Shown here piece by piece: positions 1 to 6,256 of a stretch of DNA of 64,000 nt. Positions within the stretch are counted from its first letter, which is position 1, and every line of letters starts with the position of its first letter. This stretch comes from Candidatus Hodarchaeota archaeon (GTDB lineage: Archaea > Asgardarchaeota > Lokiarchaeia > Sigyniarchaeales > SOKP01): NCBI GenBank assembly GCA_048886685.1, contig JBHLKM010000001.1, forward strand, positions 128,001-192,000, in the 5' to 3' direction. Below the pieces are notes generated by a model that did not search any database, was not told the origin of the DNA, and saw nothing but the letters and a program-made list of their open reading frames with translations. A program made the position numbers and the translations under genes.

Positions 1-51
1 ATAAGTGATGGCGATGACATATTATTAATTCCAGCAAGTACAGCTGGTTAA
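1..51 (+). CDS. 3' end of a ubiquitin-like (beta-grasp) protein, partial at window edge; paralog of 1922..2254
   Basis: Frame 1 reads ISDGDDILLIPASTAG-stop; the last 14 residues are identical to the C-terminus of the Ubl at 1922..2254 (VNDGDDILLIPASTAG). Not in the ORF track. Confidence 0.85.
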   Translation: MSDGDDILLIPASTAG

Positions 52-95
52 AATTTTAGGAAATAGTAAATTGCTTTAAATATCATTTACTTTTT

Positions 96-890
96 TTATC
101 CTCTATCTTTTCTTGAGGGAATTAGAGCTATTTCATCATCATCTTCTAAATTAAAGTCTTTTATTTGTGAGGTTTCGTCTAATAATATCCCTCCTGAAGA
201 GAGTAGAAAACTTTCTAGATTATAATCAAATAACCTTCCAATTTTTTCTTTGATAATACCAACTAATTCACTAGTATCTATTATTATTATTTTTGTTTTA
301 TCACCTGCCTCAACTAATGATCTTATGTAAACACGGATTTGGTCTTCAGTATCAAAAGTGTTTATAATTGGTGGATAAGTAATGTTCTCATCAGTTATAT
401 CTCTATTTCTCAACATATTTTCAATTAATGTTTTTCTCTCATTTGAGTCAAAATAAAGCATTTCCCGAATAAAAAAAATCTTGTCCATTTTTGATAAATT
501 TAGTAGATTTATTTTATTTATTTCTTCTTGACTAAAAACTGAAAAAATGTACTTATCGATTATTGTCATATCCTTATAGGATTCATTGCTTTCAACATAT
601 TCTTTAATTTGAGGCATTGCATCAATATATTCTTCAATTATTTCAGATGATTTCATTTTAATTGATTTTGGTTCAGGTAAATATTTTTTTTTCTTAAATT
701 TATCATCCCAACTACCTTTAGAATGGATAACTGTATACACAGTACTAGTAGAAAGTACTGAAACACTACCTATTGATATAATAAAGAATAGGGAATAATT
801 TTCTATATGAAATAGGAAAAAAGAGGCATAAATCAAAATACAAACTGTATAAAGAGCAATAACAATTAAAATTCTATTTTTTTTCCTCAT
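96..890 (-). CDS. Membrane-anchored ubiquitin-like protein (2 N-terminal TM helices, helical linker, C-terminal beta-grasp ending in free Gly)
   Basis: Hydrophobic segments at about aa 7-28 and 33-56. Aa 184-258 align without gaps to the soluble Ubl (27/75 identical by hand, including F.LSSGG...DE.S...D.N..D.D.I.LIP). Ends ...RKDRG-stop. Confidence 0.8.
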   Translation of the reverse strand: MRKKNRILIVIALYTVCILIYASFFLFHIENYSLFFIISIGSVSVLSTSTVYTVIHSKGSWDDKFKKKKYLPEPKSIKMKSSEIIEEYIDAMPQIKEYVESNESYKDMTIIDKYIFSVFSQEEINKINLLNLSKMDKIFFIREMLYFDSNERKTLIENMLRNRDITDENITYPPIINTFDTEDQIRVYIRSLVEAGDKTKIIIIDTSELVGIIKEKIGRLFDYNLESFLLSSGGILLDETSQIKDFNLEDDDEIALIPSRKDRG

Positions 891-975
891 GATTTTTTAA
901 TTAGATTGTTTTCTGAATTTAAAATATATAATTTAAAATTTAAATGAGATTGGAATAAAATTGAAGTTTTTATCT

Positions 976-1647
976 TTAATCGCCTTGAATTAAATTTTTA
1001 ACCTTTATATAATTCTTTACATCAAATTTGAACAGTTTTCTTTTATTGTCTTTCTCAATATTTACTAATTTCAGATCTGTTAAGATACCTAAATATTTTT
1101 TAATTGTGTTATGATTTTTTTTCATCCCAGATGCAATTTCTGTAATTTTTAATGCTTTATTCTCTTGCCTCATAAAATCAATTATTTCTTGAAGAATTTG
1201 TTTCCGCAAATAATAGTATAGGTCATCATATTTAGGATTTGAATCAAATTTAAAGAAAATTCTATGATTGTTGATTTGCTTTGATCTTACGAATTGGAAT
1301 TTTTCTAAACATGATAAGTGCCATAAAGCTTGATTACTTCCGATTTGCAGAACTTTCATTATTTCATTAATATTTGATGGATTCTTTTTAATGTAATTAA
1401 AAATTTCATTTCTTTTAGGATGTTCTATAATGTTATTTTTCATTAATCTGGTACCAGGAAGAATAACTCTTCGTTTAATTAAATCTTTTAAGATAAGCTC
1501 TATTCTATTCTCGTTTATATTAGGATTATACCTTACCCTATTATTAATAAATGATATAATTTCTCTTAGGGAAAAGAAGGTCTTTTTCGCTAAATATTCT
1601 TCTACTAATTCAAGAACAACAGATTCAGCATTATCCAGAGAATTCAT
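976..1647 (-). CDS. Tandem winged helix-turn-helix (ArsR/MarR-like) transcriptional regulator
   Basis: Two wHTH-like repeats (RNEIFNYIKKNPSNINEIMKVLQIGSNQALWHLSCLEK; LKITEIASGMKKNHNTIKKYLGILTDLKLV) plus an N-terminal wHTH-like segment. Confidence 0.7.
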   Translation of the reverse strand: MNSLDNAESVVLELVEEYLAKKTFFSLREIISFINNRVRYNPNINENRIELILKDLIKRRVILPGTRLMKNNIIEHPKRNEIFNYIKKNPSNINEIMKVLQIGSNQALWHLSCLEKFQFVRSKQINNHRIFFKFDSNPKYDDLYYYLRKQILQEIIDFMRQENKALKITEIASGMKKNHNTIKKYLGILTDLKLVNIEKDNKRKLFKFDVKNYIKVKNLIQGD

Positions 1648-1921
1648 GAGCTTATAATTTTATTGTGTTAAAAATTTTGGTCTTGTAAATTTGTATTCTC
1701 TTTAAAGCAACATTTTATTGAATATATATAATAATAGGCATTCATACAATTTATAATATAATTTCTTATAAGTCTTAATTTGCTCCATCTCATTTTTGAT
1801 ATAACCGCAAAAAACTTCAAAATCATTCCAAAGGATTTTATATTATCTTTTTAATGCGATTTTATTAAGTTAATAAAAAATAACAAATAACAAAAAAAAA
1901 TAAAAAAAAGGAGTGTTTTAA

Positions 1922-2254
1922 ATGAGTTTTGATGAATTTGAGGAGGACTTAGGTGAGGAGGAACCTTTAAAATCTAAAACTCCCGCCACTAAAACCCCTT
2001 CCACAGGAAAAAAACTTACTTTATATTTCATGTCAACTATTGGTCCTGGTGAAAAGAAGGAAAAATTAACAGTAAATGACAGTAATCAAGTAAGAGATAT
2101 TAAGCGAACTTTAGGTAATCTATATGGACTTGATCCTAATGACTTTCATTTATCTTCAGGTGGAGTAACAATGGATGAAAATAGTTCTTTAAGAGACTAT
2201 AATGTAAACGATGGCGATGATATTCTTTTGATCCCTGCGAGTACTGCGGGGTAA
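1922..2254 (+). CDS. Ubiquitin-like modifier protein with acidic/disordered N-terminal extension, C-terminus ...STAG
   Basis: Beta-grasp pattern (strand-strand-helix VRDIKRTLGNLYGL, LSSGGVTMDENSSLRDYNVNDGDDILLI, compare ubiquitin [28 protein letters not shown]). Directly upstream of E1-E2-JAB-RING. SD-like GGAGTG upstream. Confidence 0.9.
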   Translation: MSFDEFEEDLGEEEPLKSKTPATKTPSTGKKLTLYFMSTIGPGEKKEKLTVNDSNQVRDIKRTLGNLYGLDPNDFHLSSGGVTMDENSSLRDYNVNDGDDILLIPASTAG

Positions 2255-2287
2255 ACTTATATAATTTTTTTCATAAAATATAATATG

Positions 2288-2316
2288 AGGGCTTTAAGCC
2301 CTTACCCTTTTTTATT
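2288..2316 (+). terminator. GC-containing hairpin followed by T-tract between the Ubl and E1 genes (putative terminator/attenuator)
   Basis: AGGGCT-TTA-AGCCCT inverted repeat (2288-2302), then TACCCTTTTTT, in an otherwise very AT-rich spacer. Confidence 0.4.
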
Positions 2317-2321
2317 TATTA

Positions 2322-3557
2322 TTGGTGATAATATTGAAAAAGAGTTCAGATTTTTTTAGTAAAGACCTAACATCGGAAGAAAGAAATTTATATGACCGAC
2401 AATTTAGACTTGAAGGATGGTCACAGAAACTAGTAAAAAATTCAAGAGTTTTAATGGTAGGGGTCGGGGGATTAGGGTGTGAAATTGCCAAGAACCTAGC
2501 AATGTTAGGTGTGGGCCATATAGATTTAGTAGATTTAGATATTATAGAACATTCAAATTTAAATCGTCAAATTTTATTCGCAGGTGCTAAGTTGGGAGAA
2601 CCTAAAGCGATAGTAGCAGCAAAAAAATTGATTGAAATTAATCCGAATATAATTATTAAAGGATATCATAGTTCCCTAGAAAGATTGGATCCAGCATTAT
2701 ATCAAGCTGCTGATGTCGTCGTAGGTGGTCTTGACTCCATGAACGCTCGGTTGAATTTAAATGCTCAATGTATAAGATTTAGAAAACCGTTAGTAGATGG
2801 AGGTGTATCAGGTTATCATGGTCACGTTTATACAGTTTTTCCTTACAAAAATGCGTGTTATGAATGCAATCCACTCCCAGTAGGAGAAAATGATGAGATG
2901 GCAGCATGTACAGTCGTAGGTGTGCCAAGAAAAAGAATCCATTGCGTTTTCAAAGGAGATATGGCCTTTAAGGAAGAATTTGACAGGGATCCTAATCCAA
3001 AGAATATTAGTGATATAAAATTTATTCAAAAAATTGCTAACGAACTAGTAGATAAACACAACTTTCCTCCTGAGTATACTGAAGATGATATAGTTAAAAT
3101 TATTGATAGGCATGATCCTGGAATTATAACCATCAATGCTGTCATTTCTGCATTACAATCACATGAAGTTGTAAAAATCCTTCATTGGAAAAAAGGTCAT
3201 AAGGGTTTAGGTGAACCAATTAAATCCTACGTTATTTTCAATGCTATAACAATGATGTTTTATCATATTGAAAAGAAAAGAAATCCAGAATGTTCTCAAT
3301 GCGGGAAAAATGTTCGAAGATTCGTAGTCAAGTTGAAAAGGAGTTCTCCATGTATTAATATAATAAAAACCTTAGAAAATTATGGCTTTAAATTAAACCC
3401 TGATCTGGAACCCGTTATAACATTACTGGATTTTAATGACGTCAAGATGATTGATTTAGAACAGAATCCAATTGACAATAATTTACGAAATTATGAATTT
3501 ATGACAATTGCAGGCTTTATAGAAGGAGAAATTTTTGTAACCTTAAAATTAAAATAA
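2322..3557 (+). CDS. Ubiquitin-activating enzyme E1 (ThiF/UBA family, eukaryote UBA3/UBA2-like); probable start TTG at 2334
   Basis: GVGGLGCE nucleotide-binding loop, DLDIIEHSNLNRQ, Zn motifs CYEC and CSQC, catalytic-Cys motif CTVVGVPRKRIHC (C196), PGIITINAVISA, and a C-terminal extension at the UFD position. Confidence 0.92.
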   Translation: MVIILKKSSDFFSKDLTSEERNLYDRQFRLEGWSQKLVKNSRVLMVGVGGLGCEIAKNLAMLGVGHIDLVDLDIIEHSNLNRQILFAGAKLGEPKAIVAAKKLIEINPNIIIKGYHSSLERLDPALYQAADVVVGGLDSMNARLNLNAQCIRFRKPLVDGGVSGYHGHVYTVFPYKNACYECNPLPVGENDEMAACTVVGVPRKRIHCVFKGDMAFKEEFDRDPNPKNISDIKFIQKIANELVDKHNFPPEYTEDDIVKIIDRHDPGIITINAVISALQSHEVVKILHWKKGHKGLGEPIKSYVIFNAITMMFYHIEKKRNPECSQCGKNVRRFVVKLKRSSPCINIIKTLENYGFKLNPDLEPVITLLDFNDVKMIDLEQNPIDNNLRNYEFMTIAGFIEGEIFVTLKLK

Positions 3558-3666: not shown

Positions 3667-4194
3667 ATGAGTATAAGAAGTAGTCGAATCTCACAAGATT
3701 TTGCTGGATTAAAAAAATTATATAAACAAGGAACAATTGTTCAGTTAAAACCATTTAATCCTCAAAGAAAGAGTATTGATCATTTAGCAATAACTATTAA
3801 AGGACCTAAGGGTACCGCTTATGCAGGTGGTCTTTTTAAATTAGAAATGAAATTCCCTGCTCAGTATCCTAGGCAACCACCTTTTGTTAGATTACATACT
3901 CCAATTTGGCATCCAAATTTCTGGGCAAAACCGAATGAATATAAAGGACAGAGAAATATTTGTTTAGCGTTAGTAGATCCATCTTTAGTTGGAAAAAAAG
4001 GTGGGTGGAGTCCATCAAAAACAGCTGTTACTGTCGTTCAGGCTATAATTGCGATGTTAAATACACGAGGCAAGTATGTAAATCCAACTGATGTTTTCAA
4101 TAAGAAAGCAGCGATAGAGATGATGAAAAATCAGAAGTTTTTTGAGAAAAAAGTGAAAAATCTCGTTAAAAAGTATGCTAATAAGAAGTGGTGA
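3667..4194 (+). CDS. Ubiquitin-conjugating enzyme E2 (UBC fold)
   Basis: GPKGTAYAGGLFKLEMKFPAQYPRQPP, TPIWHPN, catalytic C99 (NICLAL), WSP motif, FNKKAA helix. Confidence 0.93.
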   Translation: MSIRSSRISQDFAGLKKLYKQGTIVQLKPFNPQRKSIDHLAITIKGPKGTAYAGGLFKLEMKFPAQYPRQPPFVRLHTPIWHPNFWAKPNEYKGQRNICLALVDPSLVGKKGGWSPSKTAVTVVQAIIAMLNTRGKYVNPTDVFNKKAAIEMMKNQKFFEKKVKNLVKKYANKKW

Positions 4195-5021
4195 AAAATA
4201 AAATGGGAGAAGAAAATTCACATATAGACTCTATTAAAGAAACAATAAAATTGAAAATTAAAGACATAATAAAGAAGGAGTTGTTAGAGGAAATTTATGA
4301 AGAATTAAAATTAGAAGAAAAAGAATTAGTTAATGAAATTAGTTCGATGATTTCTAAAAAAAGTCCTGAAAGACAAACGATTAAGCATTCAGCTACCATT
4401 CCCACCAAATCAGAGACAATAAAAGTAGAGGAAAAAAGTATTGATGAAGATAAAATAGAAAAAGAGGTATACATTTCTGTTAAAGCAATTCTAAAAGTGG
4501 CAAGTCATGCGCTTAAATATGCGAATCCTAAAATTCCTAGACAGAGTTGGGTAGAAGTAATAGGGTTACTTGCAGGAAAGGTAGATGATAAGAATGGCAT
4601 TTTACATATTGAGGATTACTATCCTATGGGTCATGGAACAGCAGTTTATGCCGAAATAAAAGATTATAGAAACTATGCTAGAGCTTTCCAAGATATTAAA
4701 AAACAAAAGTTATTTATCTGTGGTTGGGCTCATAGTCATCCTTCTTACGGATGCTTTATGTCTAGTGAAGATATTGGTACTCAATCAAGATATCAAAAAC
4801 TTTGGAACAAAGCTGTTGCCCTTGTTATCGATCCATACCTTATTGATGGAACATCAGCTGGTTTTGAGATTTATCGAGCGGATTTAACCACAAAGAGTTG
4901 GTACCCTTTAGTTTATGGCATTAAAGGGTCATTAGACATTCGCATGCTCCCAGAAATACTAAATTTTATGAATCCGATAATTGAAGGGAAAGCAATTTAT
5001 CTTGAATATGATGAAAATTGA
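4188..5021 (+). CDS. JAB1/MPN+ (JAMM) metallo-isopeptidase, Rpn11/CSN5-like, with charged N-terminal extension; probable start ATG at 4203
   Basis: EVIGLLAG catalytic Glu; GWAHSHPSYGCFMSSEDIGTQ fits E-xn-HxH-x7-S-x2-D; AVALVIDP. Overlaps the E2 stop. Confidence 0.92.
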   Translation: MVKNKMGEENSHIDSIKETIKLKIKDIIKKELLEEIYEELKLEEKELVNEISSMISKKSPERQTIKHSATIPTKSETIKVEEKSIDEDKIEKEVYISVKAILKVASHALKYANPKIPRQSWVEVIGLLAGKVDDKNGILHIEDYYPMGHGTAVYAEIKDYRNYARAFQDIKKQKLFICGWAHSHPSYGCFMSSEDIGTQSRYQKLWNKAVALVIDPYLIDGTSAGFEIYRADLTTKSWYPLVYGIKGSLDIRMLPEILNFMNPIIEGKAIYLEYDEN

Positions 5022-5050: not shown

Positions 5051-6256
5051 GTGGCAAAAATTAAATCTGTGGCAATTGTTTTGGTTATATTTCTATTAAT
5101 AGGCATAATACATGGTATTATTTCAGATTCATTAAATGTATTTGTAAGTTGGTTATTGATTGGAATCTGGTTGATATTTTCTTTTAAGGTTCTAAAAAAT
5201 ATTAAGCAGTATCGTGAATATAATTCACCTCATAATACTGCATTTTTTACAATTGCTCCTGTCTTTTTTGGAATTTTTTATTCAATCTGGGGAAATTTTA
5301 CAGGTTTATTAGGTGAAAATCTTCTAGAAGATACAGATTTATATTTAAGCTGGTGGAGTATTCTTTTTGGATTTCCATATATATTATATGGTTCTATTTC
5401 TCTGTATCGTTGTTTCAAAAAATTTAATGTGATTTATTTTGGAACTAAATCAGTAAATGCACGTAAATTTGGATACATTTTAGGCATCTCAATCCTATCT
5501 TTTATACTTATTTATTGGATAAGTTTTTATTCACTTATCGACTTCTATGATTCTTATTTAGTACCTCTTCACTTTTTAGTAGATCTAAATCTTTTAATCT
5601 TGCTTATCAGTACAATATTAATAATAATTATCCCGGGATTGTTTGGAGCCCAAACAAGATTACCCCAATTAACAAGAGATTATATAACACAAAGAACAAA
5701 TCGATTAAACCAATTAACCTCACCTACAAGCAATGGAACTCCTAGAAGATATAGAGAGAGCGTTCGGAAAACAACAAGAACATCTCCAACTCCCATAACC
5801 AGAACTGTTACGAGTAGATCAAGTTCAATTAGCCATTCTTCAAGAACAACACCCACAATGCACAGTCGATCTACAACTTCAAGGTCCAAAACAGCTACTC
5901 GAACTGTAAGCAGAGGTTCGGCAGGAACGCAAGTAAGAAGCAAACAAAGCACCAAAAAGATAAGTAATTTTAATCTGTATAAACCAAGAGCGGCACGTCT
6001 GTCAACAGAGGATTTTAAATGTATCTTTTGTTTTAAATTACCGAAATTTCCTGAAGATAGGGGAAGAGGAATAATTTTGTGTCCTAATTGTCGATATCCT
6101 GCTCATGCAGACGAATTTAAAGATTGGTTACGAAGTTCAAACCTCTGTTCTCGATGCAACGCGCCAATTCCAGCCAGTTACAGAAAAAATCCTAAAGTAT
6201 TGACTATCAAAAATTATATAGTCGTAGTCAAGCATTTTGTAAATAATAGGAAATAA
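5051..6256 (+). CDS. Six-TM membrane protein with Ser/Thr/Arg-rich linker and C-terminal RING-like zinc finger (putative membrane E3 ligase)
   Basis: Six hydrophobic segments in aa 7-198; low-complexity aa 201-305; C324xxC327...C344PNC347...H352xxE355...W359L...C366xxC369, with the RING-typical WL before the last CxxC. Last gene of the Ubl operon. Confidence 0.8.
   Translation: MAKIKSVAIVLVIFLLIGIIHGIISDSLNVFVSWLLIGIWLIFSFKVLKNIKQYREYNSPHNTAFFTIAPVFFGIFYSIWGNFTGLLGENLLEDTDLYLSWWSILFGFPYILYGSISLYRCFKKFNVIYFGTKSVNARKFGYILGISILSFILIYWISFYSLIDFYDSYLVPLHFLVDLNLLILLISTILIIIIPGLFGAQTRLPQLTRDYITQRTNRLNQLTSPTSNGTPRRYRESVRKTTRTSPTPITRTVTSRSSSISHSSRTTPTMHSRSTTSRSKTATRTVSRGSAGTQVRSKQSTKKISNFNLYKPRAARLSTEDFKCIFCFKLPKFPEDRGRGIILCPNCRYPAHADEFKDWLRSSNLCSRCNAPIPASYRKNPKVLTIKNYIVVVKHFVNNRK

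Follow-up and report, generated by a model that had tools for sequence, protein, structure and literature searches.

Organisation of the locus

The window, a 64,000-nt stretch of a Candidatus Hodarchaeota genome (positions 128,001 to 192,000 of contig JBHLKM010000001.1, here C1), opens with two genes for small ubiquitin-like proteins (Ubls) that both end in Ala-Gly. The labels of homologues, mostly Promethearchaeota or Lokiarchaeota, likewise point to Asgard archaea. Ubl-A reaches into the window only with its 3' end (1-51, plus strand). Its full gene (C1:127668-128051) starts 332 nt before the window and, on retrieval of the upstream sequence as proposed in an earlier sequence-only reading of this DNA, was found to encode a soluble stand-alone Ubl of 127 aa with an acidic N-terminal arm of 45 aa, and not a fusion. 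Ubl-B (1922-2254, plus strand, 110 aa) leads a run of E1, E2, JAMM and RING genes and consists of a 28-aa disordered acidic arm followed by a beta-grasp domain with the Ala-Gly terminus. Between the two genes, a membrane-anchored Ubl paralogue (96-890) and a double winged-helix regulator (976-1647) are encoded on the minus strand. The paralogue comprises two predicted N-terminal TM segments and a C-terminal Ubl domain that is 35% identical to Ubl-B. Its final Gly is present in one of 19 orthologues, that of this genome, where it lies one residue out of register. The protein is probably a non-conjugated adaptor; since its terminal Gly is not conserved, it was dismissed as a candidate for a third single-Gly tag, one bound to the membrane.

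The first enzyme of the run is a single-chain E1 of the canonical type (2322-3557, plus strand), resembling UBA3 and UBA2. Its catalytic residue Cys196 (2907-2909) is invariant and part of a UBA2/UBA3-type motif, two CxxC pairs are present and the C-terminal domain matches UBA3. In profile comparison, UBA3 was the best match over the full length (residues 32-398, E 4e-51). The single sequence matched UBA2, UBA1 and UBA3 with E values of 1e-38 to 1e-35, compared to 1e-14 for UBA5, and its top match was SAE2. Ala72 of NEDD8 faces Arg190 of UBA3, which we take to be the Arg that gates residue 72. Tyr170 aligns to this gate position, and Tyr was found there in all 18 operon E1s; the two other canonical-type E1s of the genome carry Gln. 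The following genes, all on the plus strand, encode an E2 of the canonical UBC family (3667-4194; Pfam UQ_con) with an HPN motif and catalytic Cys, a JAMM/Rpn11-type metalloprotease (4188-5021) in which the Glu and the HxH-x7-S-x2-D motif are intact, and a candidate E3, a multi-TM protein (5051-6256) that carries a RING-like finger at its C-terminus. Within this finger, which shows a moderate profile match to RNF24 (E 1.7e-4), an invariant Glu replaces one of the ligands.

This cluster spans Loki- and Heimdall-type families with Ubl-E1-E2-JAMM-membrane RING as the usual set. Of 20 loci, 19 have the E1 gene adjoining a Ubl and 18 contain E1, E2, JAMM and RING together, counts that overstate independence in that the loci are related and Loki-type sequences dominate. 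A co-fold of E1 with Ubl-B scored 0.42 versus 0.00 for the best control (92% of contacts agreeing between runs, partner pLDDT 84). Passes at a score of 0.60 or lower comprised 7 of 80 solved complexes and also both mismatches that passed, and E1 with its Ubl is a textbook pair; the backing that the co-fold lends to the E1-Ubl-B pairing is weak and is given little weight here.

A terminator-like hairpin with a T run, a pattern match only, lies between Ubl-B and the E1 gene (2286-2304, plus strand) and could allow an excess of the tag over the enzymes. A sigma-70 promoter scan, with a consensus not suited to archaea, gave hits at chance level. Elsewhere in the genome, a Gly-Gly Ubl is encoded opposite in strand to E2, E1 and JAB genes in a second operon (C11:492-2850). 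Contig C13 (88289-92732) encodes an E1 of 527 aa that contains an insertion and, close by, an E2, with no Ubl seen adjoining. An orphan Ubl ending Gly-Gly-Ile (C5:78465-78743) may be the tag of this C13 pair. We infer the assignment of the three canonical E1s (C1, C11 and C13) to their Ubls from gene order and gate residue only.

The Ala-Gly family

Both Ubls terminate in the same 14 residues, DGDDILLIPASTAG, encoded on the plus strand at 7-48 in Ubl-A (stop 49-51) and at 2210-2251 in Ubl-B (stop 2252-2254; 2210-2254 in all). The sequence-only reading had noted that different codons are used for this tail and had argued for selection at the protein level and against a recent duplication. All three points stand. 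Ten of the 14 tail codons differ; over the 82-aa domain 62 residues are identical, 32 of them through different codons, and the copies are unlike at 13 of 20 four-fold sites. Among 22 genomes that have this tandem arrangement, the A and B copies split into two clades (100/100), nine positions are diagnostic for A versus B, and the identity between A and B copies is 72% both within and across genomes. It follows that the duplication is old and has not been converted; a recent duplication or gene conversion was ruled out by this equality of same-genome and cross-genome identity. Many related genomes contain one copy only.

The tail itself is not uniquely conserved: two other identical runs, of 12 aa in the beta1-beta2 loop and of 13 aa in beta3-beta4, are equally long. 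About half of its 14 residues form the core beta5 strand (100-105 in the model). Ala109-Gly110 of Ubl-B aligns without gaps to Gly75-Gly76 of ubiquitin, and 179 of 181 stand-alone homologues terminate in Ala-Gly in this register; the two exceptions have tails of the membrane-paralogue type. Since the same tail, with the family signature IPxSTAG, terminates nearly all stand-alone members, its identity between Ubl-A and Ubl-B is far beyond chance. It is a family trait and not peculiar to this pair, and the suggestion of a distinct single-Gly class of Ubls is upheld. A fifth "IPASTAG" in the genome (C1:51537-51557) was dismissed as chance, being an antisense frame fragment directly after a stop.

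Searching 300 Asgard genomes with a profile of the family gave matches in 122, including one Gly-Gly false positive. The family occurs in 59 of 67 genomes of the archaeal family to which the window belongs and in several distant families, and was not found by profile in other Asgard families (0 of 76, 0 of 19 and 0 of 11 genomes). Named records include Heimdallarchaeota AB_125. The members belong to the ubiquitin family of beta-grasp proteins (Pfam ubiquitin above cut-off), and the Ubl-B model (domain pLDDT about 90) gave a fold-search Z of 13.9 with an rmsd of 1.6 over 77 residues. Numbered as in ubiquitin, the tag carries Pro71, Ser73, Thr74 and Ala75, with Ala at residue 72 in 152 of 178 sequences, otherwise Val or His, and never Arg or Lys. 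The Ile44 position is Ser in 174 of 178, and Lys was never found at 48 or 63. Owing to this Ser and the missing equivalents of Lys48 and Lys63, the tag is predicted to be unable to build, or be read as, the usual ubiquitin chains.

Residues beyond the Gly, unconserved in sequence, are present in 44 of the 181 stand-alone domains. The earlier statement that no precursor processing is needed thus applies to Ubl-A and Ubl-B and fails for these relatives. Head-to-tail poly-Ubl precursors were also found, one of three units (P0123) in two independent assemblies (loci L150 and L151) and one of two units (P0126) in a single assembly (L152). In an organisation like that of polyubiquitin, the units join directly after Ala-Gly and every unit retains its acidic arm. 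Extensions and junctions placed exactly behind the Gly point to a processed and conjugated tag. The domain also occurs at the C-terminus of larger proteins: in this genome it is fused to a Roadblock/LC7 domain (C2:401620-402459, minus strand; L003:1477-2316), and elsewhere it follows HerA-like ATPases (L100, L105) or Zn-ribbon proteins (L112, L116). As these fusions mostly keep the tail, whole proteins might be conjugated.

The N-terminal arm of Ubl-B contains the motif psi-x-S-K-T-P (1967-1984, plus strand) with Lys19 (1976-1978) as candidate acceptor. Of 23 stand-alone Ubls, 20 have the form psi-x-[STED]-K-T-P in the arm; the motif is also present in all 11 coiled-coil neighbours (see below), compared to a single case among the 206 remaining ORFs of these loci. 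A Lys precedes the arm prolines by two residues in 64% of cases versus 8% proteome-wide. K-x-P is found in 21 of 27 arms, some distant arms being without the motif; the residue between Lys and Pro is more variable than these two, above all in Heimdall-type neighbours. The coiled-coil neighbour of the present locus is a 378-aa protein upstream of the window (C1:126315-127451, minus strand), divergently oriented to Ubl-A. It is conserved beside the operon in Loki-type genomes and carries psi-x-x-K-T-P at both ends; in Heimdall-type operons a Lys/Pro-rich protein with repeated K-x-P takes its place. The motif may mark acceptor lysines, both for chain growth and in the coiled-coil neighbour. Alternatively the motif, which sits in low-complexity arms, may be a kinase or a binding/docking site.

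Affiliation with known ubiquitin-like proteins

In the sequence-only reading, the I-P-x4-G spacing of the tail was taken to match UFM1, and the two Ubls to be possibly UFM1-related or of another single-Gly class. Membership in UFM1 is not supported. The ThiS/MoaD-family proteins of the same genome share the hydrophobic-P-x4-G tail, one of them ending IPAIAGG, and the tail of ubiquitin is equally long; the spacing thus reflects a universal Ubl tail length and carries no UFM1 information. The UFM1 tail (P-R-D-R-V-G) matches that of the family at Pro and Gly only. In a Pfam scan of 35 aligned members, 35 matched ubiquitin, none Ufm1 and one ThiS (E 0.14), with Rad60-SLD below cut-off in 28. A PDB profile search with the family returned ubiquitin, ubiquilin and ISG15. 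The best Foldseek match of the Ubl-B model was ubiquitin from Caldiarchaeum subterraneum (6fno, E 1.3e-8), and the fold-search lists were taken up by ubiquitin, ISG15, SUMO and NEDD8 entries. UFM1 was absent from the top 50 of either fold search, an absence not taken as proof.

A different Asgard family, with the ends RGIVG, RGVVG or RDLLG, served as positive control and retrieved UFM1 first in PDB (E 0.002). It is encoded in an operon (L173:1825-4769, on G251:C149; also in L086, L079 and L071-L075) that comprises a UBA5-like E1 (E 5e-49), a JAB-like protein, an 88-aa Ufm1-like protein and a UFC1-like E2 (Pfam E 1e-5), and the host genome of the L173 operon belongs to the same archaeal family as that of the window. 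Ufm1-like matches, some of them weak or fusions, were obtained in 44 of 300 genomes and coexist with the Ala-Gly family in at least 12. Searches of the window's genome found neither a Ufm1-like protein nor a match to the UFC1-like profile. With Pfam Ufm1, the 300 Asgard genomes gave nothing above cut-off and one real lead, from which this second family was reached; a match in the window's genome contained internal stops and was attributed to chance. The existence of this separate family agrees with the Ufm1 homologues reported from nine Asgard clades (PMC12962969). In trees of 82 columns, from which eukaryotic UFM1, NEDD8 and SUMO were left out, the UFM1-like rows formed a clade of their own (99/100; 100/100) with the Ala-Gly family outside, and the ThiS rows another (99/99). 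The trees set the UFM1-like proteins apart from the family and rejected no deep grouping.

Orthology with UFM1 is all but ruled out, the true UFM1 relatives forming a separate Asgard operon. The features in its favour are Pro71, the non-Gly residue 75 and the single terminal Gly, all as in human UFM1, together with the wide occurrence of Ufm1 homologues among Asgard clades; against the Pfam result, a second family with its own clade, UBA5-like E1 and UFC1, and the coexistence of both families, they leave this explanation hardly any credit. A closest sister lineage of UFM1, in which Pro and single Gly would be a shared inheritance, is less remote and still unlikely. Of the families compared with it, the Asgard UFM1-like profile matches the Ala-Gly family best (hhalign 86-89%, E 2e-6 to 6e-6, versus 15-29% for Gly-Gly ubiquitins), the beta1-beta2 loop of some Asgard UFM1-like proteins resembles that of the Ala-Gly family, and a tree joining both families gave an AU p of 0.256. 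Alternative groupings are equally unrejected (p 0.20 and 0.25), however, and seen from the Ala-Gly side the order changes: the UFM1-like profile is outscored by Asgard Gly-Gly ubiquitin (97%, E 1e-11) and by eukaryotic ubiquitin (95%), and is equalled by ThiS/MoaD. The E1 and E2 of the Ala-Gly locus are moreover canonical and not of the UBA5/UFC1 type.

The ubiquitin operon of C. subterraneum encodes ubiquitin, E1, E2, a small RING and Rpn11 (PMC5654768, PMC6043591), and an ESCRT-linked ubiquitin operon is known from Helarchaeia (bioRxiv 10.1101/2023.07.25.550441). The Ala-Gly locus contains the same enzyme set, and Asgard Gly-Gly ubiquitin is the closest profile to its tag. In contrast to these operons, its RING protein has multiple TM segments and a Glu at one ligand position, an ESCRT gene was not recognised next to the locus, and the tag has an Ala-Gly end, Pro71 and an acidic KTP arm. 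Gly-Gly, Arg72, the Ile44 patch, Lys48 and Lys63 of ubiquitin proper are all missing. The system shares with NEDD8/UBA3 the E1 profile (a best match, which need not mean orthology), the usual Ala at 72 and, at the position of the Arg190 gate, a bulky side chain; unlike NEDD8, the tag has no Gly-Gly and is about 20% identical to it, the gate residue is Tyr, and the locus encodes neither a cullin nor an APPBP1 partner. Similarities to SUMO/SAE2/Ubc9 are the flexible N-arm with a recurring lysine motif, the Rad60-SLD matches below cut-off and SAE2 as top E1 match, whereas QTGG and psi-K-x-E are absent, the arm motif is K-x-P (mostly K-T-P), a JAMM protease stands in place of Ulp, and identity to SUMO is 12-15%. 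With UFM1/UBA5/UFC1 it has in common the single terminal Gly after a non-Gly residue and Pro71, but neither the profile nor the E1 and E2 classes. From MoaD/ThiS/SAMP it differs by lacking the ThiS profile and a Gly-Gly end and by the presence of an E2. By this comparison, the system would work like an archaeal E1-E2-RING-JAMM cascade while its tag fails the tail and surface features that define ubiquitin, NEDD8, SUMO and UFM1.

Proposed pathway and its implications

Sequence comparison and modelling establish a beta-grasp fold, a free or releasable Gly in the register of Gly76, and a conserved E1/E2/JAMM/RING cluster with intact catalytic residues. Ubl-A and Ubl-B are thus considered, with good probability, to be old paralogues of a conserved Asgard modifier that has its own canonical-type cascade, distinct from those of Gly-Gly ubiquitin and UFM1. 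The terminal Gly would be adenylated by the UBA3-like E1 and form a thioester on Cys196, from where the tag would move to the E2 and then, with help of the membrane RING, to substrate lysines. The JAMM protease would strip the tag and, in relatives, also mature the precursors. Insulation from the Gly-Gly systems could be provided by Ala75, Pro71 and a non-basic residue 72 opposite the Tyr at the E1 gate, and for residues 72-76 the earlier proposal that the tail determines E1 specificity is plausible. A role of Ala75 in insulation is conceivable since Rpn11 of C. subterraneum processes Gly77Ala pro-ubiquitin, altered at the penultimate Gly, much more slowly (PMC6043591). As several cysteine DUBs tolerate a penultimate Ala, and not Val (PMC7391069), Ala75 can by analogy be compatible with the conjugation chemistry and yet discriminate. 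Two further steps are less certain: chains may be built via lysines of the psi-x-S-K-T-P arm, given that Lys48 and Lys63 equivalents are missing, and the divergent coiled-coil neighbour is proposed as a substrate because of the KTP motif at both its ends.

Alternatively, the Ubls could act as non-conjugated adaptors similar to Hub1 or UBL domains, or as sulfur carriers of the MoaD/ThiS type, with the E1 and E2 serving a Gly-Gly Ubl encoded elsewhere. The orphan Gly-Gly Ubl on C5 would be available for such a role, the tail resembles those of MoaD and SAMP, the domain is also found C-terminally in the Roadblock, HerA-like and Zn-ribbon fusions, and the membrane paralogue has lost its tail. This explanation is nevertheless improbable: the terminal Gly is invariant, free extensions and polyprotein junctions lie exactly behind it, a single one of the 35 members matched ThiS (E 0.14), and the genes keep a close, conserved linkage to those of E1, E2 and RING, for which a sulfur carrier has no need.

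A conjugated Ala-Gly modifier has consequences for its detection and for the evolution of such tags. Standard diGly proteomics would miss its conjugates, as the last Arg/Lys lies 19 residues from the tag end. A literature search of incomplete coverage found no paper on an Ala-Gly Asgard modifier, and the archaeal ubiquitin cascades tested in the cited papers use Gly-Gly tags. Given an Ala-Gly tag that has its own enzymes and is not UFM1, and a separate Asgard UFM1 operon, several tagging pathways appear to operate in parallel in Asgard archaea. As this tag and its UBA3-like E1 coexist with Gly-Gly systems in this genome, and with the UFM1 operon in genomes of relatives, the insulation of pathways can be tested directly in the archaea related to eukaryotes; five small proteins would suffice, and candidate acceptor lysines and a candidate substrate can be named. 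The split into ubiquitin, NEDD8, SUMO and UFM1 pathways is usually placed in early eukaryotes. Tentatively, and with the odds rather against it, Asgard archaea including Heimdallarchaeia might possess a third eukaryote-like pathway that combines NEDD8-like gating with psi-x-S-K-T-P-directed chains on the N-arm, as in SUMO, and that marks the coiled-coil neighbour. If true, consensus-directed, orthogonal tagging by Ubls would predate the eukaryotes.
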